Shown here in pieces: positions 6,680 through 54,301 of a DNA stretch of 64,000 bases (position 1 is the stretch's first letter; every line of letters begins with the position of its first letter). Under the pieces are notes generated by a model. The model was not told the origin of the DNA. It saw only the letters and a program-made list of their open reading frames with translations, and made no database searches. Origin of the DNA: a virus; IMG/VR virus record IMGVR_UViG_3300037474_000073; one strand, given 5' to 3'. The translations under genes were made by a program, and so were the position numbers.

Positions 6680-7618
6680 TTAGGTGTTCTTCAGTCCGCC
6701 GAATACTGCGCGGATCACTTCTTCTACATCCTGCTTTGAGGCGCCGGCTGGGATCTGGATCAGCGGGCCGAGCAGTGGGGCGAGCTTCTCTGCTACCTCC
6801 TGCGCACTGGCGCCGCTTTGCTGAACAACCAGCGCGGTCAGTCCGTTGACCGCGGTCATCAACGGACCGGCCGACTCGGAGAAGTCGATCGTGGCGTTGA
6901 GGTTGTTCCGGAACACCCGAGCGGCGGCCACGTCATCGGCTGTGGTGTCATTGATGACGGTCGCCACATCGGCGAACAGATCCTTGATCGCTTCCTTGAT
7001 GATCGGCTTGTCTGCGTTGGTCAGTGCCACGTCATCCTCCTGGTATCCCCATTGGCCGTAATCTCCGACCAGCGCGCGGGTAAGATCGCAATCTCCGCCA
7101 CCGATCGTGACGCCGTTCTTGTACTGGTACAGATCGTTGACCGGGTGCACGCGGTCACCCGACCATGCGTAGGTCTGCCAGTACCACCGGGCCAGTCCGG
7201 TCACCGCGCAATGCTCGATCACGTCATAGGAGCCGTATACCCCGACACGCTCCACGCCGATCACCTGTGCGCTCGCACGTAGCGCTGCATCGATGCCCGG
7301 CCAGTCCTTGCTCCCGGCATCGAAGTCCACCGAGAAGTAGATCGGCCGGTTCGCCGGCATGCCGAGCGCTCGGAAGGCGGACTCTGCAGATTGCGCCCAG
7401 GACCGTCCGGCCGCAGCGCCGGTGTAGCCGCCGGCCGTACCCTCTGCGTTTGCCACCACATCCAGTCCGGCTCCACGTAGCGCAGCAAGCTCACCGGCAT
7501 GCAGGTGCTTACCATCGGAACCGGGACCGCCATAGCGGACAGCGAACTTCTTTCCCGCGGCGGCCAGAGAGGCAGGCGAGGGACGCGAGAACGAGTAGTC
7601 CACGCCTTCAGTGATCAT
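6680..7618 (-). CDS. endolysin, glycoside-hydrolase-like module (DUF1906 / Rv2525c-like, GH25-related)
   Basis: N-terminus GVDYSFSRPSPASLAAAGKKFAVRYGG...LHAGELAALRGAGLDVVANAEG fits the DUF1906 pattern. First gene after the tail genes. Confidence 0.7.
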   Translation of the reverse strand: MITEGVDYSFSRPSPASLAAAGKKFAVRYGGPGSDGKHLHAGELAALRGAGLDVVANAEGTAGGYTGAAAGRSWAQSAESAFRALGMPANRPIYFSVDFDAGSKDWPGIDAALRASAQVIGVERVGVYGSYDVIEHCAVTGLARWYWQTYAWSGDRVHPVNDLYQYKNGVTIGGGDCDLTRALVGDYGQWGYQEDDVALTNADKPIIKEAIKDLFADVATVINDTTADDVAAARVFRNNLNATIDFSESAGPLMTAVNGLTALVVQQSGASAQEVAEKLAPLLGPLIQIPAGASKQDVEEVIRAVFGGLKNT

Positions 7619-7633
7619 TCAAGTTCACCCCCC

Positions 7634-8728
7634 TTATCTCCGGGCGACCGGCGTCGTATCGAACGGCGCGCACACGTCAGCGGTCTTCGCGGCCATCTGT
7701 GCGACCTGGGCGATCTGGAGCAGGTTCGTGTTTCCGGCGAGGTACGTCTCGACGTTCGTGAAGTACGGATCCGCCATCACGCACCAGCGGTTGGCGGGTC
7801 CGACCGCGACACCGGCGATCTCCGACGGCAGCCACGCGAGGCGCATGTAGACCAGGGCGTCAGTCGGGCGCGGCGGGGTGAAGGTCGGCGTGTGCATCAT
7901 GACGTAGGCGGCGTTCGAGGCGAGCTGCGGGGCGAGCTGATACATGCCCCACACCGAGTACGACGTGTGATCGGGATCGGTGTCGGCGGTGCGCAGTTCG
8001 GAGTACGGCCAGTCCCGTGTCGCCGGCCGGTACGCGTAGACCTCGCGCCGGGTCACGTCCTCGGCGAGCTGAGCGATGCCCGCGGTGCCGACGCCCGCGG
8101 CGTTCGCGTCGAGCAGGAACGCGGCGACCCCGGCGTTCGAGTTGTGCACGCAGGTGCCGGGCGCGCGGTCGCCGGTCGCGTTCGAGTAGGCGACGCAGGT
8201 GCCCTGCGCGGTGTTGATCTGCGGGAAGTTCTTCAGCATCACCACGATGGCCCGGAGCTCGGTGAACGAGACCACCCCGTGCTTGTAGCCCTCAAGGAAC
8301 GTCGCGCCGACGTGACCGGCGAGCGTCACCGAATAGGTCGTGGTGATCGGGTTGACCGTGCCGTCACCGAGCTGGTCGTATGCGCACGGCAGACCCCAGC
8401 CGCCGTCCGGGTTCTTCATCGACCGGATCTTGTTCAGGTACGCCGTCGTGGTCGGATCATCCCAGCCGCGCAGCCGGCCGGCAGCCTCGCCCGCCCAGGA
8501 ATAGGTCGACGCCCGCTGCGGTGCCGCGGTGACCGTGCCGCATGGCTGCGTGGAACCGGGGCCTCCGATCGCAGTGTGATCGACGGCCTCGAACGTGGCG
8601 AGGGCCTGGACGGCGATGGCTCGCCAGCGCTCGGAACGGGTCGGTACCGGGTCGGCGGACGCTGACGGAGCGAACAAAAAAGCCGCAGTGATGACCGCGG
8701 CACACAGGATCGACATCTGTCGTCTCAT
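7634..8728 (-). CDS. secreted protein with Sec signal peptide, possible alpha/alpha-toroid fold
   Basis: Trimmed from track start 9217 (the upstream part is off-frame and R-rich). ATG overlaps the upstream stop (ATGA). Signal MRRQMSILCAAVITAAFLFAPSASA/DP. Contains NPDGGWGLP. Confidence 0.6.
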   Translation of the reverse strand: MRRQMSILCAAVITAAFLFAPSASADPVPTRSERWRAIAVQALATFEAVDHTAIGGPGSTQPCGTVTAAPQRASTYSWAGEAAGRLRGWDDPTTTAYLNKIRSMKNPDGGWGLPCAYDQLGDGTVNPITTTYSVTLAGHVGATFLEGYKHGVVSFTELRAIVVMLKNFPQINTAQGTCVAYSNATGDRAPGTCVHNSNAGVAAFLLDANAAGVGTAGIAQLAEDVTRREVYAYRPATRDWPYSELRTADTDPDHTSYSVWGMYQLAPQLASNAAYVMMHTPTFTPPRPTDALVYMRLAWLPSEIAGVAVGPANRWCVMADPYFTNVETYLAGNTNLLQIAQVAQMAAKTADVCAPFDTTPVARR

Positions 8729-9273
8729 AGCGGCAACACTATCAATGTGCGGTTCAAGGCGGTGAGCGCGCCGCCGGTGGGCGTCGTGTACTTCGCAGTG
8801 AAGGTGTTCGATCCAGCGGTGATGGTCGGCAGGTCGATGCCGAACGATCGGTGCACCGTGCCGGCCGTTTCGGACATCAGCCGGATCGCGTTGGCGATCG
8901 CCGCTGCCTGCGTCGTGGCGCCGGACACCGCGTAGGACATGTAGCCACCGCAGCCGACCGAGGCGTTCGACATGTAGGCGCCGTACATCACGATCGCCTT
9001 GGTGCCGGTGACCAGCGGCCCGACGACCGGTCCTACGGTGGCGAAGTCGGCGAACACGCCGGTCGACGGCGTGAACGACTCGTTGGTCGCGACGTTCGCG
9101 ATCGTCGGGGTCCGGGCGGCGATCGCGTTGGCGCCGGTGCTGATGAACATCTGGCCGGCGGTCGTCGCGAGCGCAGGCGCGGTCGTGAGCAGGTTGTCCC
9201 GCACGGACGCATTCCACTGCGCGGCGGTCAGCGGCGTGTTTGCTACCGCCGTGAGCGGCGTCGTCCAGGCCAT
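8725..9273 (-). CDS. minor tail protein
   Basis: 182 aa. N-terminus W..PLTAV.NTPLTAAQWNASVRDNL is typical of actinophage minor tail/fibre proteins. Position after the large minor tail gene. Confidence 0.55.
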   Translation of the reverse strand: MAWTTPLTAVANTPLTAAQWNASVRDNLLTTAPALATTAGQMFISTGANAIAARTPTIANVATNESFTPSTGVFADFATVGPVVGPLVTGTKAIVMYGAYMSNASVGCGGYMSYAVSGATTQAAAIANAIRLMSETAGTVHRSFGIDLPTITAGSNTFTAKYTTPTGGALTALNRTLIVLPL

Positions 9274-22655: not shown

Positions 22656-24036
22656 GGGAGTGGTCTCCGATCGACAGACGGACAGTGGTGCGGATGCGCC
22701 CGGTCGGCGCCGCTAGACGCTCGCCCCACACCGAGACGAGTTGGCCGCGGCAGCGCGAGCCGCCGAGACACGAGACGTATTTGCCGGACCCGTACGCGGC
22801 TTGCGCGTCGTCGCGGTTGTCGAACCGCTCACCGTCGATCGACCGGCACGGCGCACACGAGTTCTCGTCGAGGCGCTCGGAGGCGTAATACTCGGCGATC
22901 GGGGCGACCTCGATCACCGACCAGCGGCCTTTCGCCTGTGCCGCGCTGAGCGCGCCGCCGAGCTGGTCGCGCAGGAACCGGTCGCCGTAGCCGGTCAACT
23001 TCTCGCCGACGAGAGCCGCGATGGTCCTGCCGTCACCGGTCCCGATGAGCTGAGCGGCAGTCCGACCGGCAGCGGTCGCGGTGCTGGCGCCCATGACCGC
23101 GGTCACGGTCGCGGCGAGGTCGTCGAGTTCCTTCTGATCGATCTCGGGCGTCTCCACGACGACGCCCTGCCGCATGGCCTCGGCGATCTGTTCGTCACGG
23201 GCGTCGGCGGCGACCGAGCTCATCCGTGCGGCCAACACGGCCGCCGCCGTCCCCGTGGTGACGACCAGCGCGGCGAGGTCGTCGGTGCGGTCCTTGTCGA
23301 CCGCCTCGGTGATCTGCGCCGTGAGTTCGTCCCGCTGTGCCGAGCTGATGTCCGGCCATTCGGCGAGCAGCTCGTCGAGGGCGTCCGACCACGATTTCTG
23401 GATCGCCTCGAAGTCGGTGGTCGCCGCGATCTCGGCCGGCGTCGACTCGCGTACGTCGGACGCGGCGAGCCGGATCGGGATCGTGGTGCTCAGCCGCGCC
23501 GCCGACGCGGTGACCTTGTCGCCGGGCATCGGCTCGGTGAAGGTTGCGTAGACGTCCTGCATGCTCTTGAGCACGCCGACCCCCGGCGCGTAGGCGCCGA
23601 GGATCGCGACCGCGGTGATGACCGACGGGTGCAGGTGCCCGATCTGGCAGAGGAACGGCTGATAGATCTCGATGGACCGGTCGGGGTACGCCGAGGCGAG
23701 CACGCTCATGCCGTTCTCGTCGGCCTCGGTCAGCCACGCGGGCATGCCCATGTAGTCGCCGATCAGCTTGGCGCCGTCCACGTGCATGTTGCCGATCCAC
23801 CCGAGCGCCGGTTCGCCGTCCCACCGGACGCCGTTCGTCGAGTCCTCTTCCATGTGGCCCGCCTTGATGACGGGGTTACGCACGCCCGGACATTCCAGCG
23901 CAGCGACCGCCTGAGCGAGGTCATCGTCGGTCAGCGTCAGCCATCCCGTACTGGCGTGCCATTTACCGACGGCGGCCAGCTCGATCCCGCCGACCGAGCG
24001 CAACGGCACCGGACGGCGGATCTCCAGGTCGGTCAT
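22645..24036 (-). CDS. capsid maturation protease / MuF-like head morphogenesis fusion protein
   Basis: 463 aa after portal. The C-terminus ..NSCAPCRSIDGERF.. matches the SPP1 gp7/Mu F-type motif. Confidence 0.65.
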   Translation of the reverse strand: MTDLEIRRPVPLRSVGGIELAAVGKWHASTGWLTLTDDDLAQAVAALECPGVRNPVIKAGHMEEDSTNGVRWDGEPALGWIGNMHVDGAKLIGDYMGMPAWLTEADENGMSVLASAYPDRSIEIYQPFLCQIGHLHPSVITAVAILGAYAPGVGVLKSMQDVYATFTEPMPGDKVTASAARLSTTIPIRLAASDVRESTPAEIAATTDFEAIQKSWSDALDELLAEWPDISSAQRDELTAQITEAVDKDRTDDLAALVVTTGTAAAVLAARMSSVAADARDEQIAEAMRQGVVVETPEIDQKELDDLAATVTAVMGASTATAAGRTAAQLIGTGDGRTIAALVGEKLTGYGDRFLRDQLGGALSAAQAKGRWSVIEVAPIAEYYASERLDENSCAPCRSIDGERFDNRDDAQAAYGSGKYVSCLGGSRCRGQLVSVWGERLAAPTGRIRTTVRLSIGDHSHAH

Positions 24037-25331
24037 GACGCGGGAACACGCTCGTTCGCGGGCGCGGGCACCGGTGCGGGCTGCGCGGCGGTCGGGGTCG
24101 GCTCGGGCGCGACCGCTGCCGGCCGTTGCGCGATCGTCGGCAACTGGTAGCGGTTACGCAGGTCGTTCTCCAGCGTGATGTCAGGCGTCAGCGCCCCGCA
24201 GGTCACGAGGGCGGCGATCGCGTCGCTGGTGACCTCGGGACGGGTGATGTCCGTACAGATGATTCCGGGGATCGGCTCCTCGCCGCCGGACCAGTTGATG
24301 TCGACCATCTGCATCGACAGGTTGTTCGCCGGCGTGGTGATCTCACCTGCGGTCGCCCGCCACGACAGCTCGAGCATGCCGATCAGCGTCTCGCCGAGCG
24401 CCCGCGACCCGTTGGCGCTGGCGTCGAGGTTGAACACGTTCGCCATGACCGACGCCGCGATCTGCGCGTCGAGGTAGCGAATGAACCCGAGGGTGTCCGG
24501 CACCGACCCGGAGAGCCCCTTCAGGTCGAACGTGTATCCGTCGGGCAGACCGACGCCGGACTGGTCGCCGACGCGGTATCCGCTGGCGAGTTCCTGCGCG
24601 CGGGTGATGTCGGCGGGCGGTGACCCGGCGGGCGCGGTCACCTGCGGGATGCCCATGCCGAACCGGCGCGATGAGGTAGCGAGCACCCGCCAAAGCTCGT
24701 GCTTGATAAGCCACGGCGCGTACGCGGGCCGGATCATCGACTGACCCTGCCAGGCGGCACCCTCCTTCTCGCGCACGTTCCAGAGCAGCCCCGACGCGGG
24801 CACGAGATCCTTGACGCCGCTCTGATAGACGCCCTTGAGCGATCCGTCGTCGTTGGTCACGATGTTCGTGATCGTCTGCGGCAGCCGCTCTGACAGCTCG
24901 GCGAGCCGGGCACGCAGCGGGTTGCCGATGATGTCGTACCGCATGGCGAACGGCGAGTGACCGAAGATCAGCATCAGGTTCACGGCGAGCCGCAGGTACT
25001 CGTCCCACTGCACGCCGCGGCGCCGGAACGGTCCGGGTCCGTCGTTGTCGCCGACGATCGGCAGCCCCCACGCGTCGGCGACCAGCTCGACGACCTCGTC
25101 CCGGCAGCCTTTCGGGTTGACCGCCCACGTTCCCGAGCGCAGCGGCAGACTGTACGACTTGACGACCGACGAGATTTGCGGGTCGTGCCTCATCTTGGCG
25201 AAGGTCTGGATCGACGTGGGGTAGGCGAGTGCGGGCACCGACTCGTAGAGATCGAGCGCGAGCGTGCCGTACCCGTATCCGCCGTCCTGCAGAGATCCGG
25301 CGAGGGTGCGCGGTGCGTCGGACAGTGCCAC
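24033..25331 (-). CDS. portal protein
   Basis: Trimmed from track start 25478 to the GTG after AAGGGGG. 432 aa. Position between the TerL region and the protease. Confidence 0.75.
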   Translation of the reverse strand: MALSDAPRTLAGSLQDGGYGYGTLALDLYESVPALAYPTSIQTFAKMRHDPQISSVVKSYSLPLRSGTWAVNPKGCRDEVVELVADAWGLPIVGDNDGPGPFRRRGVQWDEYLRLAVNLMLIFGHSPFAMRYDIIGNPLRARLAELSERLPQTITNIVTNDDGSLKGVYQSGVKDLVPASGLLWNVREKEGAAWQGQSMIRPAYAPWLIKHELWRVLATSSRRFGMGIPQVTAPAGSPPADITRAQELASGYRVGDQSGVGLPDGYTFDLKGLSGSVPDTLGFIRYLDAQIAASVMANVFNLDASANGSRALGETLIGMLELSWRATAGEITTPANNLSMQMVDINWSGGEEPIPGIICTDITRPEVTSDAIAALVTCGALTPDITLENDLRNRYQLPTIAQRPAAVAPEPTPTAAQPAPVPAPANERVPAS

Positions 25332-25354
25332 GGTGACCCCCTTACGATGCGGAT

Positions 25355-25750
25355 ATGGAGACGAGCGGAAACGACGACTACCCGCCGATGACCGCGCCGC
25401 CGTGGGGGCGGCACGATCACGACGTGATGGCGGACCTGATGCGCGCGGTACGGGTGCTCGGCATGGCACCGGCGCCACCGTTGCCCGACGTGCGGGCCGG
25501 CAGCGATCAGGTGTTCAGGGATCTCGCCAGCGAGTCGGGGATCCAGACCAGCACCGGCGGCGCGGAAACGCTCGCCATGCTCGGCATTCCGGTGCGGGTC
25601 ACGACCGAGCTACCCGAGAACGTGGTCATCATCGGCGACCGCGTGCTGATGCGCCGACAGCGTGGCGACTGGATCACGTTTCCGCTGAGCGTGCTGGATT
25701 ACGATGGCAATGCCACTGCTGAGCACGTGCGTGCATTCCGCGCACCGTAG
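25355..25750 (+). CDS. hypothetical protein (131 aa), antisense to the late operon
   Basis: Only plus-strand ORF inside the structural block with a protein-like translation (..GAETLAMLGIPVRVTTELPENVVIIGDRVLMRRQRGDWITFPL..). Start uncertain. Confidence 0.5.
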   Translation: METSGNDDYPPMTAPPWGRHDHDVMADLMRAVRVLGMAPAPPLPDVRAGSDQVFRDLASESGIQTSTGGAETLAMLGIPVRVTTELPENVVIIGDRVLMRRQRGDWITFPLSVLDYDGNATAEHVRAFRAP

Positions 25751-25807: not shown

Positions 25808-26752
25808 CTAGTAAGTGCCGCCGTAGCGGAACGAACGGAACACGGTCGGCGCGATCATGATCGCGTTGTAATGCGTGGGCACCGATGGGATGTTGAAGAT
25901 CGTCAACGCGGGCGTCACGCCGGCCGGCACGGTGTTGCCGAGCGTGAACGAGTACGACTTGGCGCCAGCGGTCGTCGAGCCGAGCACGCCGCTGCCCATC
26001 TTGGCTCCGATCGGAGCGGTATCGCTGGCCGCGACCTCACCGAACACCTGCACCTTCCCGGCCTGCGTATACGTCGGCGACGTCCACAGGCTGTTCTGGA
26101 ACGCACCGCAATAGTTGCCCTTATAAGACGTCCACCACGCACCACTGACGTACTGCACGCCGAAGAGCTGCGTTGTGGCGCTGCCGACGCTGACGTCGGC
26201 GTTGATGTCCAGTCCGTGCGGGCAGGTCGTTCCGACAGCCGGAACAAATCCTGTGCCGTAGCCATTGAAAACGCCGTTGGTCCAGCTCCCTGCGAACAGG
26301 TGCGGATTGCTGTTGCCGAACAGGGAAGAGTCGACGGTCCAGCCCCACTCGACGATCTGCTGCTCGTTGGCAGACTTGACCGCCAGTTCGAACAGCGAGT
26401 GATAGCAGAACTGCGTCGAGGTGCACGTCGGCTTCTCGACGGTCACTTGATCCGAGGCGCCGTCCGTGGAAACGGTCTGCTGACCGCCTCCGTAGAAGTA
26501 GCACGTGCCGCAGGGCGACTTGGCGGTCATGCCGACTCGCTGAACGGGCATGCCCTTGCGTACCGAGCCCTGCTTGCCGACCAACGCGTGCGCGTAGTCG
26601 AGCGCCGGCAGCGGCTTGCCGATCAGGTTGCTCGCGCTGACCGCCTGCGCGGGCGCCGCAGCGGCCGGCGTGCTGCTGATGCCGGCCGCGCCGGCGAGCA
26701 ACAACAGGAACGCCCCGAGCAGTGACACCGCCCGAGTCTTGATCGTAGTCAT
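25808..26752 (-). CDS. secreted neprosin-like (DUF239) putative glutamic peptidase
   Basis: Trimmed from track start 27364 to the ATG after GAAGGAGACGAG. Signal peptide MTTIKTRAVSLLGAFLLLLAGAAGISSTPAAAAPAQA. VEWGWTVDSSLFGNSNPHLFAGSWTNG..GTGFV...GAWWTSYKGNYCGAFQNSLW...VFGEVA parallels the neprosin pattern, including both Glu positions. Confidence 0.6.
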   Translation of the reverse strand: MTTIKTRAVSLLGAFLLLLAGAAGISSTPAAAAPAQAVSASNLIGKPLPALDYAHALVGKQGSVRKGMPVQRVGMTAKSPCGTCYFYGGGQQTVSTDGASDQVTVEKPTCTSTQFCYHSLFELAVKSANEQQIVEWGWTVDSSLFGNSNPHLFAGSWTNGVFNGYGTGFVPAVGTTCPHGLDINADVSVGSATTQLFGVQYVSGAWWTSYKGNYCGAFQNSLWTSPTYTQAGKVQVFGEVAASDTAPIGAKMGSGVLGSTTAGAKSYSFTLGNTVPAGVTPALTIFNIPSVPTHYNAIMIAPTVFRSFRYGGTY

Positions 26753-26768: not shown

Positions 26769-28403
26769 TCACCAGTCGGCGCGTTCCAGGTCGGCGCCGC
26801 TGAGTAGTCCCGTGCTCGCGGTGTAGGCGAGATCGGCGTCCGTCGGTCGCCGGTTGACCGGCTCGGGCTTCTCGTGGCGCGGGGTCCAGTGCGCCGAGAC
26901 GATCCGGGCGGCGTACGAGAACGTATCCACCTGGTCGTCATGGGTCCACGACGGGAACCCGGCGATCTCGTCGCACCACTCGTCGAGCCAGTCGGCGACC
27001 GCCGGCCAGAACACCGTGTGGCTTGCGAGCCGCTGCGTCGCCGGCAACGCCCGCGTGACCTTGTCCTTGTCCGGCGTGAGCGGCTGGATCCGGATGCCCG
27101 CGGTCGTAGCGTCGATGACCAGCGTGGTCCCGATGAAGCCGCGCTCCACGTAGACGTCCGGCGCCGCCCACTTCGCGCACAGCGGGCGCAGCATGTCGGC
27201 GTGCGCCTGCTCGGCGATGCGCTTGCGCACCCGGTCGAGCAGGATGAGCCGGCCGTCCAGCGTGATCGCCCACACCGAGGCGACCGTGAAGTCGGCCGAG
27301 GTCTTCGTGCTCGACGCCAGGTCCATCGTGATGAACCGGCGCATGTCGCCGACGAACAGCGCATCGCCGTCCACCTGGATCCGCAGACCGGCGGTCGGGT
27401 CGTGGTGCGACCGGTCGTAGCCGATGACCGACCAGTACCGGAAGTCGGAGCGGGCGAACAGATTGCCCTCGGCCGCGACCGGCGTCTGCATGTAGATCGA
27501 GTTCCAGACGTACATGGAACGCTTGGTCTGCAGCTCGCGGTAGTAGCCCGGCCGGCGACCCTGAACGCTGATCAGCTCACCGTGCGGGTCGTACACCGAG
27601 GCGCCGTCGCCGCCACGCACGAGCGGCTGGGTCACGTCGCGCACCGCAGGGATCCGCAGCACCTTCCAGGTTCCCGGCTCACGCTCGAGCATCCGGCCGG
27701 CGAGGTCGTCGGTGTGCCAGCGGGTCATCATCAGCACGACCCGGCCGCGCGAGCTCATCCGCGTCGCGCCGACCGACTCCCACCAGTCCCACGCGCTCTC
27801 GCGGTAGGTCGGCGATTCCGCCTCGGCGCGGCCGCGCACGGGGTCGTCGATCACCATCAGGTCGATCCGCTCACCGGTCAGACCACCGCCGACGCCGACG
27901 GACACGACGCCACCGCCCTGCGTGGTCTCGTACGCGTCCACCGCCCGCGAGTCGGCCATCAGTTCGAGCCCGAGCTCGGGATGCGCCTCGATCATGCGTC
28001 GGATCCACTTGCCCCAGCGCTCGGCCTTGGTCGCCGAGTAGCTGACGATGCCGATGCGCAGGGTCGGGTCCTGGGCAAGCATCCAGAGCGGGAACCAGCA
28101 CGACGTACGGGTGCTCTTGCCCTCCTGCGGCGGGATGAACACCATCAGCCGACCGCGGTCCTGCTCGGCGTCCGCGAGGTCCACGAGAGCGGCGTCGATG
28201 GCCTGCAGCGCGGGGGTCTGCGTCGTCGAGGTCAGGTACGCCTGCGCGAGGGCGCCCGGCGTGGGGTACCGGGCGCGGAACTCACTCGCCGAGATCCTCC
28301 GGAGGTGGTCCCGTTTCGATCTCACCTCGGACAACTTGGCCTTCAACCGCACGAGCTCGTCGACTGATCTCGTCGTCAAGCTCTCGGATAGTGGCGTCGA
28401 CAT
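26769..28403 (-). CDS. terminase large subunit
   Basis: Walker A PPQEGKST, Walker B DLMVIDDP. 544 aa. Start uncertain because it overlaps the TerS-like ORF by 122 nt. Confidence 0.9.
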   Translation of the reverse strand: MSTPLSESLTTRSVDELVRLKAKLSEVRSKRDHLRRISASEFRARYPTPGALAQAYLTSTTQTPALQAIDAALVDLADAEQDRGRLMVFIPPQEGKSTRTSCWFPLWMLAQDPTLRIGIVSYSATKAERWGKWIRRMIEAHPELGLELMADSRAVDAYETTQGGGVVSVGVGGGLTGERIDLMVIDDPVRGRAEAESPTYRESAWDWWESVGATRMSSRGRVVLMMTRWHTDDLAGRMLEREPGTWKVLRIPAVRDVTQPLVRGGDGASVYDPHGELISVQGRRPGYYRELQTKRSMYVWNSIYMQTPVAAEGNLFARSDFRYWSVIGYDRSHHDPTAGLRIQVDGDALFVGDMRRFITMDLASSTKTSADFTVASVWAITLDGRLILLDRVRKRIAEQAHADMLRPLCAKWAAPDVYVERGFIGTTLVIDATTAGIRIQPLTPDKDKVTRALPATQRLASHTVFWPAVADWLDEWCDEIAGFPSWTHDDQVDTFSYAARIVSAHWTPRHEKPEPVNRRPTDADLAYTASTGLLSGADLERADW

Positions 28404-28806
28404 CGCTCTCCCCGATCTGGATCCGAGTCGGAGCGTTCGCGCCGGTCAGTCGGCTGATGGAGTCGATGATCAGGCGGCACTCGGTGACCGCCTTGATGTC
28501 GCCGTCCATCGCCCGCTGCCATAGCGCCTTCAGCAACGCCTGCAGCCGGTCGAGGGACTCGGCACGGTAGTAGACCGTCTCGTGCCGCAGGTCGGCGATC
28601 GCGTCCTGCATGGCGCGGTGAACTGCCATCCCGACGGCCTGGCGGCTCGGCCACACCCGCTTGCCGTTCTCGTCGACCTGGGTCAACCAGATCTCTTCGT
28701 ACGTCATGCCCGAGCGCTTGCGGATCAGTGCCTCGCGGGTGCGCTCGGCGCGCATCTCCGTCGACGCCTTCTGCTGATGCGGCGGGATGTTCCCGGTCAT
28801 CGTCAC
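28282..28806 (-). CDS. terminase small subunit (putative)
   Basis: 174 aa directly upstream of TerL. N-terminal HTH-like region (GMTYEEIWL), a coiled region and an acidic tail. GTG start. Confidence 0.55.
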   Translation of the reverse strand: MTMTGNIPPHQQKASTEMRAERTREALIRKRSGMTYEEIWLTQVDENGKRVWPSRQAVGMAVHRAMQDAIADLRHETVYYRAESLDRLQALLKALWQRAMDGDIKAVTECRLIIDSISRLTGANAPTRIQIGESDVDATIRELDDEISRRARAVEGQVVRGEIETGPPPEDLGE

Positions 28807-29072
28807 GGCGCCTCACCTGATTCCGGGCACGGTGAAGTTGTCGGCATAGTATGCGCCGCCTGATCACTTCGGCAACTGACCGCCCCTGATCTCACCCAGT
28901 CAGCATGCACCCGCATCACCTCTTCGGCCGAATAGACCGGCGCGGGCTTGCCGCCGGCCGCCGTCATCCGGTGCCCGATAACAGGCGAGCCCGCCAATCT
29001 GCGCTGCAACGTCCGGCGCGGGATCGGCGGGCTCAACCATGAGAGCGCCTCGGTGATGGTCAATCCGGTCAA
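28803..29072 (-). CDS. helix-turn-helix DNA-binding protein (excisionase/MerR-like)
   Basis: Trimmed to the TTG that overlaps the upstream stop (TTGA). LTITEALSWLSPPIPRRTLQRRL..KPAPVYSAEEV. Confidence 0.45.
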   Translation of the reverse strand: MTGLTITEALSWLSPPIPRRTLQRRLAGSPVIGHRMTAAGGKPAPVYSAEEVMRVHADWVRSGAVSCRSDQAAHTMPTTSPCPESGEAP

Positions 29073-30049
29073 CGTGCCTGGCGGGGGTAGCGGGCCGACT
29101 TGAACCCCGAGTGGTGCTGCTCGCGCAGCATCTCGGCAGCCGCGTAGTCGTACGCCTCGGACCAGGCGGCGTCGTACTCGGGCAGCCACGCCTCACCAGC
29201 GAGGTCGTGCAAGGTGCCGAACAGTACCGCCTTGACGGCGGCGTACTCCTCGAGCGTCGCGCCACGGGTGACGCCCTCGCTCGGGCGCCAGAATGCGGCG
29301 TGCGCACGACCCATCGCCTGCAGCGCGGTGTCGAGTGGTTCAAGGCTGTCGGGGTTGTCGGGGTCGTACATCGTGGCGAGCGCCTTGAGCGCGCCATACA
29401 GCTTGTCGCGCTGCTTGAGACCGCGAGAGTCGGGGTCACCGAGCGGGTCGCGAGGGGCGAGCAGGTCGGACGGGAAGATCTCGGCGAGATTCGGCGCCGC
29501 GTCCAGCAGCCGCGAGTAGAACGTCAGGATCGCCGTGTCGCCGGTCTCACCGTCGAGCAGGGCGATCGACTCGCGGAGCAGGTCGCTGGTCGTCATGACG
29601 TAGCCCTTCCCTCGGCACGCCGGGCACGGCGGGCGCAACGCCTGGATCTCCGACGCCCGCATCCTGGTCAGCGTGTCGTCGAGCGGGACGTCGACCGGAT
29701 CGTCGACCGACGTATCCGTCGCCCGTTCCCCCTCGATCCTGCCCGCGCCCGCGTAACCGTCGCCGGTCTGAGGTCGGTCGTCGGCCGTGTCCGGCAGGTA
29801 CCGGCCGACGTTCTGCGTACGGTCCGCATCGCTCTGCGCGGGTGGTGCGCTGATCGGCTGTTCTGGTTGCACTGCTTGCTCCCCTGCTACTCGTCTCCGG
29901 AACATGATGAACTTCCCTACCTCGGCCAGGACCCGCCCGAGCATGACCATGCCGGCCAGTCCCCCGACGACGATCAATATCAAGGTGACCATAGACCACG
30001 GGTTACTGCGGATCGGGTCGTTGAACAGGTGATACAGCCAGTCCCTCAT
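29069..30049 (-). CDS. membrane-anchored globin-domain protein
   Basis: N-terminal TM segment WSMVTLILIVVGGLAGMVMLG, then a linker with CPACRGKG. The C-terminal 150 aa or so align by eye to 3-on-3 globins (FY B10, IF CD1, QRD E7, GRAHAAF F8 His, W..AY..AA). Confidence 0.6.
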   Translation of the reverse strand: MRDWLYHLFNDPIRSNPWSMVTLILIVVGGLAGMVMLGRVLAEVGKFIMFRRRVAGEQAVQPEQPISAPPAQSDADRTQNVGRYLPDTADDRPQTGDGYAGAGRIEGERATDTSVDDPVDVPLDDTLTRMRASEIQALRPPCPACRGKGYVMTTSDLLRESIALLDGETGDTAILTFYSRLLDAAPNLAEIFPSDLLAPRDPLGDPDSRGLKQRDKLYGALKALATMYDPDNPDSLEPLDTALQAMGRAHAAFWRPSEGVTRGATLEEYAAVKAVLFGTLHDLAGEAWLPEYDAAWSEAYDYAAAEMLREQHHSGFKSARYPRQAR

Positions 30050-30056
30050 CGGTCGC

Positions 30057-30497
30057 TCATCGGTTCAGCTCCTTACGCCAGCGATTCGACCAGCGGGCGG
30101 CGTGCGCTATCTCGGAGAACGCGGGTGTGTTCGCGTGCTTGGCGCGACCTGCGGTACTCCACAGCTCGTGATTGCGGGTGTACCGGCCACCGAGGAAGCT
30201 CAGACCGTATTCCTGCCAGCCACGATAAGCGATGACCCGCACCGCGCCCGGATAGCGCGCCCAGATCTCCCGAGGCAGCGACCGGATCACCTCGTCGACC
30301 AGCGCGTACGGCGTGGTCAGGGCGACCGCCTCGATCTCGTCGAGCAGGTCGTGCACCAGACCGTGAGCGTTCGCGCAGAGCTGGATCGTGCGTGTGCCGG
30401 TGCCGCCGCGGGCGATCGGGCGGATATGGTGCTGCTCGATCGGCACGACCTCGGAATGAACGGGATGAGCGAGACAGACACGGCCGATCGTCATCAC
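30057..30497 (-). CDS. HNH endonuclease
   Basis: EQHHIRPIARGG ... CANAHGLVH (HNH/HNN core). Typical position near terminase genes. Confidence 0.8.
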   Translation of the reverse strand: MMTIGRVCLAHPVHSEVVPIEQHHIRPIARGGTGTRTIQLCANAHGLVHDLLDEIEAVALTTPYALVDEVIRSLPREIWARYPGAVRVIAYRGWQEYGLSFLGGRYTRNHELWSTAGRAKHANTPAFSEIAHAARWSNRWRKELNR

Positions 30498-30616
30498 AGA
30501 GCCATCGACAACAGGTAGACGGTGAGGACGACGGCACCTCCCAGCATGGTCACGATGCCGACCATGCCGATGAGACCGACGGCGACCCAGCCGACCGCCC
30601 GAGCAACCTTGTGCAA
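30494..30616 (-). CDS. small membrane protein (about 40 aa)
   Basis: One TM segment VGWVAVGLIGMVGIVTMLGGAVVLTVYLL. Start uncertain (TTG 30616 chosen; the track start is 30691). Confidence 0.3.
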   Translation of the reverse strand: MHKVARAVGWVAVGLIGMVGIVTMLGGAVVLTVYLLSMAL

Positions 30617-30706
30617 CGGATACCCCCTGGTACCCCCCGTTCGGACGCTACCCCTCTGACCGGAAACGCACATGAGCCGAGCGTTGCTCAAAGATCGTCC
30701 GAGAGG

Positions 30707-49836: not shown

Positions 49837-51018
49837 TCAGCTCAGTACAACCATCGGCATGATCGCGTGTTGCCAGTTCGGGTCGTTGGGGCTGGTCAGT
49901 ACGATCGGCCGGCGGGTGAACTCTCCGACCTCGAAGCGCACCTCCACCTTGTCGCCGGGCACCGACCCGAGTGCCTCGGCCAGCCATTGCGGGTTGGTCG
50001 CGATCGAGCCGGACTCGCCGGTGTAGTCCACGTCGACCTGCTCGTTGCCGTCCTGGTCGAGATCCTTCTCGCTGGACGCGATGGTCAGCGTGCCGTCGGT
50101 GAACCGCAGCTTGACCGGTCCCTCCTTGCCCCGTACGATCGCCGCCCGCTTGAGCGGCATCGCCACCTCGGCGGGCTCGAGCACCGCCAGTCCGGCGTAG
50201 TTCTGTGCCTGGGCGAAGTTGCCGTCGAGGTGGATCGCCGGCCAGCCGTTCGGACCCGGATCGCCGAGGCGCATGACCAGCGACCGCGCGGGCGAGGTCA
50301 GCGAGATCCCGCCGTCGTGCAGCCCGATCGTGATTCGGCCGGGTCCGGTGAACGACGCGGCGGCGTCGATGAGGTTCGTTCCGTACGGGGTCGCCGACCG
50401 GCCGTATGCCGCGCCCTCGGCGTCGGGCGTCCACGGCAGCACGGTCTTGGCGACCCGGTACCGGTCGGTCGCGTAGACGGTGAGGTTGCTGTCGCCGGTC
50501 TCGTCGCCGAACCCGAGGAACATCTGCCGGAACACGGTCGTGTTATCGGGGTCTTTCAGGTTGGCGACGCCGACCCGTGCGATCGCGGCGGCGAATTGGT
50601 CGCCGTCGACCGATCCGATGGACGGCAGTTCGGCGGTCAGGCCGGGCCAGTCGTCCTCGCTGAACGTCGGCATCGTGCCGACCCAGCGCCCGACGGTGAG
50701 CATCAGGTGCCCGTTGCCGGCGGTGCCGATGCGCACGACCTGGTTGCCGCGGAACGTCGCGGCGAGCTCGCCGAGCAGGCGCCCGGACACGATCGCGATG
50801 CCGGCCGGCGTGTCGGTCAGGTTCTCCTCGGTGAGCACGGTCGCCCGCGCGGTCGCGTTCTCGTTGTACGTGGTGACGGTCAGCTTGCCGTCGCCGACCT
50901 CGAGCGCGACGCCGAGCCCAATCGGTGCCGCCGGCCGTGCCCCGATCCACTTGACCGCCCACGCCACGGCGGCCGCGAACGGCGCCGCCTTGACGGTGAC
51001 CTCTCCGGTGATCGTCAT
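49837..51018 (-). CDS. dnaN: DNA polymerase III beta sliding clamp
   Basis: Trimmed from track start 51192 to the ATG that overlaps the upstream stop (ATGA). Contains ATDRYRVA, NPQWLAEAL and a C-terminal AIMPMV. 393 aa. Confidence 0.85.
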   Translation of the reverse strand: MTITGEVTVKAAPFAAAVAWAVKWIGARPAAPIGLGVALEVGDGKLTVTTYNENATARATVLTEENLTDTPAGIAIVSGRLLGELAATFRGNQVVRIGTAGNGHLMLTVGRWVGTMPTFSEDDWPGLTAELPSIGSVDGDQFAAAIARVGVANLKDPDNTTVFRQMFLGFGDETGDSNLTVYATDRYRVAKTVLPWTPDAEGAAYGRSATPYGTNLIDAAASFTGPGRITIGLHDGGISLTSPARSLVMRLGDPGPNGWPAIHLDGNFAQAQNYAGLAVLEPAEVAMPLKRAAIVRGKEGPVKLRFTDGTLTIASSEKDLDQDGNEQVDVDYTGESGSIATNPQWLAEALGSVPGDKVEVRFEVGEFTRRPIVLTSPNDPNWQHAIMPMVVLS

Positions 51019-52694
51019 TCCTTTTCTCCACTCTCTCGGTTTTTCTCGCACTCGGCGACGCCGAGCATGACCCATTCGAAGACCGGCACGGCGATCGAGT
51101 TGCCGAGCTGCCGGTACCGCGCCGAGTCGGCCTGCGGTTTGCCGTTGCTGGTCGCCGTCCACCCGTCCGGATATCCCTGCAACCGTTCGCACTCCACCGG
51201 CGTCAGCCGCCGGACCGCCGAGGGCGAAGCGATCGCCCCGCCACTGGTGTTGTGTCCCGAGCGCACCGTGTTCGCCAGTTCGCGTGCTCGCGGTCCGACC
51301 CCATCGGTGTGCCCGAACGCGACCGGCTGGACGATCCGCAGTCCATGGTCGCCCCGCTCGCCCTCCTCGGCGGTGATGGTCGGCGCGGTGTCTGTCGGCG
51401 TGACGGTGATCCCGTCCTGGTTGCCGAGTGCCCGCTCCTTGTCGACGATGAAGTTCGTGTTGTGCCCCTGCCCGACCCCGCCGAGGTCGGCGCGCAGCGC
51501 GTACGCGATGAACGCCTCCTCGTCGGGGTGGTTGCGCTGAACGTGGGACATGAGCGCGGGTGAATTATCTCCGATCACCAGATTTGCCGAATCGCCCGCG
51601 TCGTATCGGTCCGCGCCCTTTCCTGCAGTCAAGGAATATGCAACCTCGGGTGCGATCGCGATGGCATGCGCGCCAGTCGTGTCCAGAGTGAACATCGCTC
51701 CGTCGTCATCGCCGTAGCCCGGTCCCGCTGGTCCAGCCGTGTCGCTACGCCCGATGATCGTGTTCTGCATGGGAAAGACGTGGTTCGCGAGTACGTCGGA
51801 AGCATCAACACCCGCCCGTCCGCCACCCATCCATGAGGTGAGCGCGCCGGCAAGGATCTGCCCGCCGGCCGCCGACTCGGCGTCGTACGGGGTACGGGCG
51901 TTGGTCTCGGACAGCGGCGAGATCACTTCTCCCGGTCCGCCAGCGAGCGCAACGCTGCGTGCAAGGACGCGGGCAGTTCGCGCTCGCGCCGCTTCGCCCG
52001 CCGCAGGATCCCCGTCGCGGCCTTGGGGCTCAAGCAGTACCTGAGCAGGTGCGGCCCAGTCTCGAGAATTCGCGACAATGACGACGCGGCGGCGCCGCTG
52101 GGGGACTCCGAAGTGCTGAGCGTCCAGCACTCGGTAGGCGTACCCATACCCGCGGTCTGCCAGTTCCCCGAGGACGGCACCCATTGCACCCCCGTGGATC
52201 TCGACGCACCGGCCGGGGCCACAGGCTCCTCCCCGAACAGAGTGAGGATCGGTGCAACCGTTTCCGCAGGCTCCGTTGCCTGGGCAGGGGCAGACCGACG
52301 ACAGGAGACCAGGGACGTTTTCCAGGACGACCCACCGACACCGAACACCGGTGAGCTCGAGAATCTCGTCGAGGATCCGCACGATCTCGAAATAGAGTCC
52401 CGAACGTGCGCCGTCCAGGCCCATGCGACGTCCCGCCAGGCTGAGATCCTGGCATGGGAAACCGGCTGTGATGATTCCGTTTCGGGGATCAAACCCGGCT
52501 GCGAGTAGGTCGGCACCGGTCACCTTCCTGATGTCGTCGAACATGGTCATGTCGGGGAAGTGATCGGCTGCCACGCCGGCCGCCGCCTTGTCGATCTCAA
52601 CGGCTGCCACGGTGCGGAACCCGACCCGTGCCAGTGCCAGCGGGAACCCGCTGATCCCGTCGAACATCGAGACGGCGGTCAGTTGGCTGTCCAT
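51015..52694 (-). CDS. DNA (cytosine-5)-methyltransferase
   Basis: Motif I FDGISGF, motif IV GFPCQDLS, motif VI ENVPGLL, motif X QLGNSIAVPV. Very long variable region (559 aa in total). Confidence 0.95.
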   Translation of the reverse strand: MDSQLTAVSMFDGISGFPLALARVGFRTVAAVEIDKAAAGVAADHFPDMTMFDDIRKVTGADLLAAGFDPRNGIITAGFPCQDLSLAGRRMGLDGARSGLYFEIVRILDEILELTGVRCRWVVLENVPGLLSSVCPCPGNGACGNGCTDPHSVRGGACGPGRCVEIHGGAMGAVLGELADRGYGYAYRVLDAQHFGVPQRRRRVVIVANSRDWAAPAQVLLEPQGRDGDPAAGEAARARTARVLARSVALAGGPGEVISPLSETNARTPYDAESAAGGQILAGALTSWMGGGRAGVDASDVLANHVFPMQNTIIGRSDTAGPAGPGYGDDDGAMFTLDTTGAHAIAIAPEVAYSLTAGKGADRYDAGDSANLVIGDNSPALMSHVQRNHPDEEAFIAYALRADLGGVGQGHNTNFIVDKERALGNQDGITVTPTDTAPTITAEEGERGDHGLRIVQPVAFGHTDGVGPRARELANTVRSGHNTSGGAIASPSAVRRLTPVECERLQGYPDGWTATSNGKPQADSARYRQLGNSIAVPVFEWVMLGVAECEKNRESGEKE

Positions 52695-54301
52695 CAGAAC
52701 TCCAACACGGGCTGGATGCCCTTGCTGAGCCGCTTGACGATCAGCGGCAGGTGTCCGGGGTCAAGCTCGATCAGCGTGACGCGGAACCCCTCGACGATGC
52801 ACGCTTCGCCGGTCGTTCCGGATCCGGCGAACGGGTCGAGCACCATCCCGCCGGGCGGCGTGACCAGCTTGACCAGCCACCGCATCAGGTCGACGGGCTT
52901 CACGGTCGGGTGCGCGACGACGCCCTCGGATCCATCGCGCGCGATCCACTGCGGCTCGGGGCACACGCACGGCGACCCGGATACGTCGGTCCACCCGCAC
53001 AGAGCGCACCGGTTTCCGGTCACACCCGCACTCGCGCCGCGCCCGATCCGCGGCCGCTCCGACGCGGGCGCCTTGGCCTCATACCGGAACGTCGGGAAGA
53101 ACCGTGATGCCCCGCCGCTGTCGTACTTGATGGCGATTCCGTCGTTAGTCCCAGCTGCGCCTTCGCCAAACCCGATCCCGCTTCGCCGAGCCGGTCGGAT
53201 CCCGCCCTCGATGTATCCGCTCTGCGCGTCCAGCTCGGCGATCGGGCATCCCGGCACACACCTGTCGGCGCACAGATCCTCGCCGTCCGGCGTCGCCGCG
53301 TGCGACAGCACGACGTTGCTCGGCCACCGACCGAGACCGGCGACCGGCACCGACGAGCGGCCGTTCAGCCCGTGACCGTAGGCGGACACCGACTCGGGTG
53401 CATGGCTATCGAATCCAGGATCGCGCGTGCCGCCGGTGTTCCCGACCCGGCACCCGTCGATGTTGAGCGCGCCCGTGCCGTACGCCTGCACGTTGCCGGC
53501 GACGGTGCCCGCCAGCGGCTTGCGCGCAACGACGATCGGTTCCGACGCCGGTTTGAGCGCGGTACCCCAGCCGGCCCACCGCTTTGCGGCGTCGGTGGCG
53601 GGGGCGGTTACGTCGAGGTAGCCGTTCGCTGCGCCGTTAGTCATCGTCGGAAGCATCCGGCCTGTAGTTGCCGTGTTTGCGTAACCCGGCTGCCCTAGCT
53701 TCGTGTCGACCACCTCACGCGTTGCGCCCGCCGCCTTGTCGATGGCCTTGCTGACGTCCAGCGACTTCGGGAAGCCCGAGCCGTACATCCAAGTGATCGT
53801 GTCGCGGATCTCGAACCCGGCATCCTCGATCCCACAGGTCAGCCGATGCCAGGTACGGGTACCGCCGAAGGCGAGCAGGTGCCCGCCAGGCTTGAGAACA
53901 CGCCAGCATTCACGTGCCCAGTCCTCGGTCCATGCTTGAAAGGCGCGGAGTCGGGGGCCGCGCTCATCAGTGAAATCGGGATTCGCGCATCGGCACGGCG
54001 ACCCGCCGCGCTGCGAGTGACCACAGGACTTGCATCGAGGGTTCACTCCGCCAAGGAAGGTGGGAGCCTCGATTCGGCGCGCTCCATCGGAATAGCCAGC
54101 GGCGCTCATCCCCGCTGTTGCGTTAGATCTAGCTTCGCCGCGCCCGAATGTGTCCCACTCGCGACCCATGAACTCGAGCCCATATGGAGGGTCACACACA
54201 ACGGCGTCGATGGAAGCCTCAGCCATAGCACGCAGGACCTCGAGCGAGTCTCCGTGGAACAGCAGCATGTTGTCGCCGTCACGCCAGTACGGCTCAGTCA
54301 T
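52694..54301 (-). CDS. DNA amino-methyltransferase (N6-adenine or N4-cytosine, beta-class order)
   Basis: DPPY near the N-terminus and DPFAGSGTT near the C-terminus. 535 aa with Cys-rich insertions. Confidence 0.9.
   Translation of the reverse strand: MTEPYWRDGDNMLLFHGDSLEVLRAMAEASIDAVVCDPPYGLEFMGREWDTFGRGEARSNATAGMSAAGYSDGARRIEAPTFLGGVNPRCKSCGHSQRGGSPCRCANPDFTDERGPRLRAFQAWTEDWARECWRVLKPGGHLLAFGGTRTWHRLTCGIEDAGFEIRDTITWMYGSGFPKSLDVSKAIDKAAGATREVVDTKLGQPGYANTATTGRMLPTMTNGAANGYLDVTAPATDAAKRWAGWGTALKPASEPIVVARKPLAGTVAGNVQAYGTGALNIDGCRVGNTGGTRDPGFDSHAPESVSAYGHGLNGRSSVPVAGLGRWPSNVVLSHAATPDGEDLCADRCVPGCPIAELDAQSGYIEGGIRPARRSGIGFGEGAAGTNDGIAIKYDSGGASRFFPTFRYEAKAPASERPRIGRGASAGVTGNRCALCGWTDVSGSPCVCPEPQWIARDGSEGVVAHPTVKPVDLMRWLVKLVTPPGGMVLDPFAGSGTTGEACIVEGFRVTLIELDPGHLPLIVKRLSKGIQPVLEF

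Follow-up and report, generated by a model that had tools for sequence, protein, structure and literature searches.

Virus record IMGVR_UViG_3300037474_000073 of IMG/VR carries an open reading frame (ORF) of 326 codons plus stop on its minus strand (29069..30049), which encodes a protein with a C-terminal globin domain. Positions are those of the window, by which we mean the whole 64-kb stretch of DNA analysed (~67% GC), and all window genes described below lie on the minus strand (-). The identical 326-amino-acid (aa) protein is recorded on two contigs, the longer of which is 67.5 kb. The GC content at the three codon positions of the ORF is coding-like (0.69/0.49/0.85), and 48 homologues were identified with E values from 1e-154 to 2e-32. 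An opposite-strand ORF at 29111..30235 failed the codon-GC filter and looks like a shadow ORF.

The protein begins with a Trp-rich peptide (MRDWLYHLFNDPIRSNPWS, aa 1-19, 29993..30049) that is predicted to lie outside the membrane and whose motif DWLWHLFNDPMRDNPWS recurs in those homologues that bear a transmembrane (TM) helix. A single TM helix (aa 20-38, 29936..29992) and a basic juxtamembrane motif, M-F-R-R-R (aa 49-53, 29891..29905), precede a disordered linker of variable length (aa 54-137, 29639..29890). This leads to CPACRGKG (aa 142-149, 29603..29626), a conserved single copy of the CxxCxGxG zinc-knuckle motif of DnaJ/anti-TRAP type, and to a 3-on-3 globin domain with helices A, B, C/CD, E, F, G and H (aa 154-315, 29105..29590). 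The chain ends in a short tail (aa 316-326, 29072..29104) in which R323 is invariant and R320 is at least 90% conserved in the 49-member family alignment; in two wider alignments, 127 and 130 of the non-gap rows have the conserved Arg. The knuckle-globin core is under purifying selection, with a ratio of nonsynonymous to synonymous substitution rates (dN/dS) of 0.13 across both parts in one close orthologue pair.

The globin fold is real and far beyond chance. Globin is the sole substantial Pfam match of the protein (aa 176-307, E 0.0031, 18.4 bits against a gathering score of 22); the same model matched 37 of the 49 family members individually at E up to 0.01, the best at 3.1e-9, and a precomputed PF00042 entry exists for 15 of the 48 homologues. 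Searched alone against PDB globins, the protein gave E values of 4e-6 to 1e-2, with 3wfw as best match (4.2e-6), and with the family profile globins filled all top ranks, including 3wfw (HGbRL, 8.5e-10), 3s1i (Hell's Gate globin I, 8e-7) and 1cqx (Ralstonia flavohaemoglobin, 7.6e-6). An AlphaFold2 model of the globin domain has a predicted local distance difference test score (pLDDT) of 92 and a predicted template modelling score (pTM) of 0.85, and the full-length model likewise exceeds pLDDT 90 over this domain. When the full-length model was compared with the PDB using Foldseek, all 50 of the 50 listed matches were globins at probability 1.00; they include yeast and bacterial flavohaemoglobins, neuroglobin and plant haemoglobins, with target template modelling scores of 0.62-0.83 for single-domain targets. 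In all six members tested against NCBIfam, the only significant match in the globin region was to the globin part of NO-inducible flavohaemoprotein (NF009805); of the 399 profile positions only 6-134 were covered, and the score of 24 bits is far from the cut-off of 432. The IMG pipeline labels homologues 'hemoglobin-like flavoprotein'. A sequence-only reading of this DNA had proposed a C-terminal domain like that of 3-on-3 globins and flavohaemoglobins, to be checked by Pfam and structure modelling, and the family-profile and structure comparisons returned globins.

The protein is a single-domain M-family 3-on-3 globin with additions, belonging to the flavohaemoglobin/single-domain lineage. 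The globin domain carries a CD-E insertion and a small FG beta-hairpin between helices F and G, which amount to 14 and 9 extra residues, respectively, relative to the nearest cellular relative. Other globin classes were considered and rejected. The sensor (S) family, or protoglobin, was set aside because none of the 49 members matched Protoglobin and no domain follows the globin. The truncated 2-on-2 (T) family was set aside because the models contain helices A, E, F, G and H at full length and the only matches to 2bkm and 1ux8 are short ones at helix B. A flavohaemoglobin proper was likewise dismissed: the protein ends 11 residues past helix H without an FAD/NAD(P)H reductase domain, F7 is not Lys and H23 is never Glu.

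A hidden Markov model (HMM) alignment to 1cqx places the residues of the haem pocket. Tyr178 (codon 29516..29518) corresponds to B10 (Y29 of 1cqx), Phe192 to CD1 (F43), Gln213 (29411..29413) to E7 (Q53), Leu217 to E11, His250 (29300..29302) to F8, the proximal haem ligand (H85), Tyr269 to G5 and Val272 to G8. This alignment bears out each of the positions that had been assigned from the sequence, namely Tyr B10, Phe CD1, Gln E7, His F8 and the G and H helices. Conservation was counted over the globin domains of 177 aligned relatives. His-F8 is present in 177/177, which answers the point raised earlier of whether the proximal His is kept among homologues, and Tyr-B10 (175/176), Phe-CD1 (175/176), Gln-E7 (174/175), Leu-E11 (170/176), Tyr-G5 (171/176) and Val-G8 (169/176) follow closely. 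The conserved pocket is of the flavohaemoglobin type. Positions B10, E7, E11 and G8 are among those that control nitric oxide (NO) dioxygenase activity in flavohaemoglobin (PMC7948479). From this pocket we infer haem binding, and it is very likely that the protein is a haem-binding globin.

The knuckle is the second constant element. C142, C145, G147 and G149 are invariant in 49/49 of the closest members; among 178 wider representatives the full CxxCxGxG motif is present in 139 and a plain CxxC in 29 more. The CxxC sits 8 residues ahead of helix A, and the distance from CxxCxGxG to Phe-B9/Tyr-B10 is 33-38 aa in 132 of the 134 proteins measured. It had been suggested that CPACRGKG lies within a 120-aa low-complexity linker. 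The linker is indeed disordered, with pLDDT <50 for aa 56-117 in the AlphaFold2 model and alignment columns that are mostly gaps, its length and sequence varying among homologues, but it spans only ~85 aa, and CPACRGKG is a conserved motif joined to the globin rather than a part of the linker. Weak matches to anti-TRAP and to phrog_4104 of PHROGs (E 0.0029) were obtained at the knuckle. Of the 139 proteins that bear the motif, 136 have a single copy in the chain (P0049, P0118 and P0160 have two), and no second CxxCxGxG protein that might complete a zinc site was found in 19 phage loci. Most likely the knuckle is half of a metal site that would pair two chains via a shared Zn, or would dock a partner. 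Attachment of c-type haem through CxxCH was rejected since the His is not conserved, as was a Cys-Pro haem-regulatory motif, in which the Pro would have to be kept and is not.

The single N-terminal TM helix noted in the sequence-only reading is supported by a Kyte-Doolittle mean of 2.43 over aa 20-38 and by the full-length model, which has a helix at aa 17-54 with pLDDT ~92 over aa 21-40. The proposal that the protein is tethered to the membrane fares well for the window protein, for which an anchor is predicted, but does not extend to the family as a whole, in which only 34/181 representatives have a TM anchor. The net charges flanking the helix are 0 on the N side and +4 on the C side, and the means for the 34 anchored members are -0.8 and +3.7, respectively. 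Because of this charge bias, a single-pass N-out/C-in topology is predicted, which would put the globin in the cytoplasm, the compartment that offers haem b and reduced thiols. We rejected a signal peptide of Sec or Tat type, as the n-region has 19 aa and is conserved and uncharged, and the TM-less forms have no hydrophobic stretch after RRR.

The N-termini are modular and are mounted on the constant knuckle-globin core; they comprise the TM anchor, the M..FRRR start, a GPTDEEIS...GGPxYPIP module and extra Cys pairs. The GPTDEEIS module (..IRR...GPTDEEIS..SQA.GGP.YPIPP..) replaces the TM anchor in P0021, P0034, P0066, P0074, P0076, P0081, P0093, P0100, P0123 and P0127. In the window protein, an in-frame ATG at Met49 (29903..29905) lies just past the TM helix and is followed by FRRR. 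Since the TM-less homologues start with M..FRRR, a second, soluble isoform initiated internally at M49 is conceivable. One protein from the profile search described below, P0051, has 2461 aa and is matched by the phage-globin profile at 14 separate places (summed E 1e-111); it is apparently a multi-globin chain.

The globin gene belongs to a one-directional minus-strand gene array that spans ~59.4 kb down to ~11.3 kb in the window. The array includes a RecE-like exonuclease, an ERF recombinase, an RNase T-type exonuclease, two DNA methyltransferases, a primase/polymerase and many small genes, then the HNH-like gene, the globin ORF and the putative small (TerS) and large (TerL) terminase subunits; a 1246-aa ORF is a possible tape measure, and an Rv2525c-type endolysin is encoded further along. 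Given this gene content, the entire window looks phage-like. No tRNA gene was found in a tRNA gene search, and a scan for promoters and terminators found none of the former and one site resembling the latter, where 1.0 would be expected. The window TerL is at most 38% identical to that of any GenBank phage, its best matches being to a Microcystis phage first and then to Arthrobacter, Brevibacterium, Glutamicibacter and Microbacterium phages. The carriers are a group of uncultured, high-GC, siphophage-like and probably actinobacterial viruses of ~65-70 kb. The two methyltransferase genes are adjacent and unusually long (51015..52694 and 52694..54301), encoding a C5-cytosine enzyme of 559 aa and an N6/N4 enzyme of 535 aa, with the catalytic motifs of both split by long inserts.

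The immediate neighbourhood is compact. Upstream, a 146-aa HNH-type nuclease gene (30057..30497) has an HHIRP...CANAH motif, a weak NCBIfam HNH-like match and orthologues in related phages, and is separated from the globin start by 7 nt. Downstream, an 89-aa ORF (28803..29072) has a TTG start that overlaps the globin stop (TTGA) and a stop that overlaps the GTG start of TerS (GTGA). Judged by its sequence, this ORF resembles a helix-turn-helix (HTH) or excisionase-type protein (LTITEALSWL...RTLQRRL); it has no NCBIfam or PADLOC match, an orthologue is found in locus L022, a 90-aa gene occupies the equivalent spot in L001 and L002, and the gene caller skipped it in L019. The putative TerS gene (28282..28806; phrog_645, E 8e-17) lies immediately upstream of that for TerL (26769..28403; Terminase_6N/6C, phrog_38, E 8.6e-88), and a probable portal gene follows at 24033..25478, whose orthologues in L001, L002 and L006 carry Portal_Mu. 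By their order, the HNH, globin, terminase and portal genes form a single, tightly packed operon, and the placement between HNH-like and terminase genes that had been described for the window also holds in related phages.

Two further ORFs of this region deserve mention. A 314-aa Neprosin (PF03080) peptidase ORF with a signal peptide (E 3.7e-16; 25808..26752) is wedged between the large terminase and probable portal genes; the arrangement is the same in L019, and L001 and L002 have an 82-aa reverse-strand gene at this place. Just upstream of the HNH gene, a 65-aa ORF (30494..30691) ends in a strongly hydrophobic stretch (GLIGMVGIVTMLGGAVVLTVYLLSMAL) and may encode a further small membrane protein of the same operon.

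An exhaustive profile search of 1.84 billion representatives identified 129 clusters (50% identity) at E up to 1e-30 and 268 at E up to 1e-10. Every family locus examined was phage-like, and nine are in IMG/VR. In related phages, with TerL proteins 54-86% identical to that of the window, the globin gene is found just upstream of TerS and TerL, and directly after the HNH gene wherever the latter was identified. Loci L022 and L023 (TerL 65-66%) have the order HNH, short ORF, TerS, TerL and no globin gene; no globin was seen within 6 kb upstream of TerL in L027-L029 (TerL 55-56%), nor in the 1.6 kb available for L026 (TerL 59%). Since related loci lack it, what the window phage has between HNH and TerS is an optional cassette. 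This survey supplies the distribution among related phages that had been proposed as a check. In another group of phages, the gene lies among small genes near DUF6197.

The gene had been called unusual cargo, and this description is well founded. A tblastn search with the window protein against 50,697 GenBank phage genomes gave no match, a BFVD fold search using full-length and domain-only models found no neighbour, and PHROGs held nothing for the globin region. PADLOC likewise returned no match and no defence-system model. When a cellular flavohaemoglobin-type globin was used as query against the phage genomes, the only match was a 1.5-kb unannotated 'Salmonella phage' record (E 5e-3). Our literature search found no account of a phage-encoded 3-on-3 globin, and a soil-virome list names 'hmp' as a viral auxiliary gene (PMC12304974). 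Among 185,579 species genomes in GTDB there were only three matches, all distant cellular relatives. The two with full sequence context (L008 and L009) are globin-reductase proteins of ~30% identity from actinomycete metagenome-assembled genomes. In both, the globin-reductase gene is directly upstream of an NO-synthase-like gene containing WRNSSRCIGR (7464..9089 and 9185..10819 in L008; ~8019..9108 and 9205..10833 in L009), and the pair looks like an NO-making and an NO-consuming gene.

Our favoured, though tentative, reading is that the protein is a phage haem-b globin that handles NO or O2 near the membrane and is reduced by host enzymes; NO dioxygenation or NO/O2 handling as its job is put forward with the same reserve, or slightly more. 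The N-terminal helix would insert in the cytoplasmic membrane with the N-terminus outside, and the globin would hang on the cytoplasmic side by a flexible tether of ~85 aa, as the charge bias suggests. His250 would ligate the haem, and Tyr178, Gln213, Leu217, Phe192 and Val272 would form a distal pocket as in flavohaemoglobin, Vitreoscilla haemoglobin (VHb) and Campylobacter Cgb, in which that pocket stabilises bound O2 and turns NO into nitrate. As there is no fused reductase, the ferric haem would be re-reduced by a host reductase. The single CxxCxGxG knuckle would most likely pair two chains through a shared Zn, or dock a partner. Because the gene shares an operon with HNH, terminase and portal genes, the globin would probably be made late in infection. 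The benefit would be that NO-sensitive respiration, and hence the ATP supply, is kept running under the membrane during phage replication and DNA packaging. Counting in favour of this reading, besides the fold, the pocket, the selection on the core and the charge bias, is that the closest cellular relatives, the actinomycete globin-reductases, lie beside an NO-synthase-like gene.

Several observations weigh against this reading. Only about one fifth of the family is membrane-anchored. No reductase, ferredoxin or haem-pathway partner was found among the ~30 window proteins scanned; the functions identified there were confined to replication, recombination, methylase, lysis and packaging. F7 is Ser in 91, Ala in 27 and Arg in 22 proteins, so that the Lys-F7 electron-transfer gate of flavohaemoglobin is not kept. 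H23, in what we take to be the right column from the 1cqx alignment and the numbering of that protein, is Gln in 115, Ala in 38 and Gly in 14 and never Glu; the proximal His-Tyr-Glu triad (F8/G5/H23) is therefore incomplete, with only F8 and G5 retained. A plain NO dioxygenase would not account for the invariant knuckle, the 14-aa CD-E insertion or the 9-aa FG hairpin. Finally, in other phages the gene lies among small, presumably early genes, and late timing is therefore not general.

One alternative is an O2 buffer that, like VHb, delivers O2 to the terminal oxidases of the membrane and sustains respiration and ATP in oxygen-poor soil microsites. Its Tyr-B10/Gln-E7 pocket is the same as that of VHb, which is among the PDB sequence and fold matches, and the membrane tether would put the globin beside the oxidases; yet most family members have no anchor, and the knuckle is left unexplained. 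Pockets with Tyr-B10 and Gln-E7 generally release O2 slowly, a property better suited to chemistry than to delivery. In favour of delivery, an interaction of VHb with the terminal oxidase under oxygen limitation is reported (PMC8306070), and on balance we regard this role as unlikely. Another alternative is a haem-based gas or redox sensor, in which ligand binding would act on the knuckle, linker or anchor by changing its state and thereby send a signal to a partner in the phage or host, with the timing of packaging or lysis as one possible use. Modular N-termini (TM anchor, FRRR, GPTDEEIS...GGPxYPIP and extra Cys-rich fingers) on a constant core, a nearly constant knuckle spacing of 33-38 aa and the start/stop overlap with the HTH-like ORF are what a sensor might show. 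Nevertheless, the pocket is of the enzyme type and there is no Protoglobin or sensor-family match and no recognisable output domain, whereas the known globin-coupled sensors described in PMC1457004 carry C-terminal transmitters, and we consider a sensor slightly less likely still. Of the two roles offered in the sequence-only reading, NO/O2 handling fits better than sensing, given the flavohaemoglobin/single-domain lineage of the protein and its lack of an output domain. An equally speculative variant makes the knuckle-globin core a phage-specific haem switch, in which two chains share a Zn or Fe-S centre via their single CxxC pairs and the gas or redox state at the haem is read out through the interchangeable N-terminal modules. 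If true, the phage could use such a switch to monitor host respiration or NO and to adjust late events such as packaging or lysis; this would be the first case of haem-based sensing by a virus, as well as a new globin architecture.

A distinctly unlikely option is that the protein acts as a haem sink, capturing host haem so as to starve or protect haem enzymes or blunt a host response, or performs other haem chemistry such as peroxidase or thiol-redox reactions via the CxxC. The invariant haem ligand, the CxxC 8 residues before helix A and the conserved R214, R248, R255, R320 and R323, which could hold the haem propionates, are compatible with it. However, a sink does not need at least 96% retention of Tyr-B10, Gln-E7, Leu-E11 and Val-G8, no defence-system model was matched, and the CP and CxxCH variants are not conserved. 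A haem-free globin fold of RsbR type, serving as scaffold only, is highly improbable: the window protein does fall under the Pfam gathering cut-off and one homologue weakly matches RsbRD_N, but essentially all members retain the proximal His and the full set of distal pocket residues, and to our knowledge non-haem globins lack the F8 His.

Globins are among the most studied proteins, and this phage family is large and under purifying selection, showing that some soil-type phages invest in haem chemistry. If its members detoxify NO or manage O2, as in the reading that we favour, they would constitute a new class of auxiliary genes that connects phage infection with the respiration of the host and with nitrogen-oxide turnover. 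With its constant knuckle-globin core and swappable N-termini, the family also presents a new globin architecture that is worth structural study.

Comparison with known systems places the novelty in the architecture and the setting. The globin domain of flavohaemoglobins (Hmp, FHP 1cqx/1gvh, yeast 4g1v) has the same 3-on-3 fold as the phage protein and shares with it Phe-B9/Tyr-B10, Phe-CD1, Gln-E7, Leu-E11, His-F8, Tyr-G5, Val-G8 and Tyr-H12. Unlike flavohaemoglobin, the phage protein lacks the reductase, has Ser or Ala rather than Lys at F7 and Gln, Ala or Gly rather than Glu at H23, and adds ~14 CD-E residues, a 9-residue FG hairpin, an N-terminal knuckle, a linker and an anchor, in addition to being phage-encoded. 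VHb, Campylobacter Cgb, 3s1i and thermoglobin (7dih) are likewise stand-alone globins of the same lineage that depend on cellular reductases; VHb, 3s1i and 7dih were among the PDB sequence matches, and VHb and 3s1i also among the fold matches. These single-domain bacterial globins are, however, soluble cellular proteins of ~130-150 aa and have no Cys knuckle, no disordered linker and no TM helix. The globin domain of HGbRL from Methylacidiphilum (3wfw), which gave the best of the PDB sequence matches, chiefly across the G-H helices, is also part of a chimeric globin, but its fusion partner is a C-terminal Roadblock/LC7 domain and the protein is cellular and has neither knuckle nor anchor. The actinomycete globin-reductases of L008 and L009 have FY..L, (M/I)FP and QRD(K/R)L motifs in common with the phage protein. 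They differ from it in being cellular enzymes of two domains, with a ferredoxin-reductase-like part fused at the C-terminus, and in lacking the CD-E and FG insertions and the knuckle. The zinc fingers of DnaJ and anti-TRAP use the same CxxCxGxG syntax, with two motifs per zinc in one chain, in contrast to one per chain in the phage protein and extra Cys pairs in a few members. The 'hmp' entry of PMC12304974 is an annotation-level, NO-dioxygenase-like soil-virus gene that comes without a protein description, architecture, conservation or phage lineage. In the phage globin described here, the fold and the pocket are known, and the architecture and the biological setting are new.

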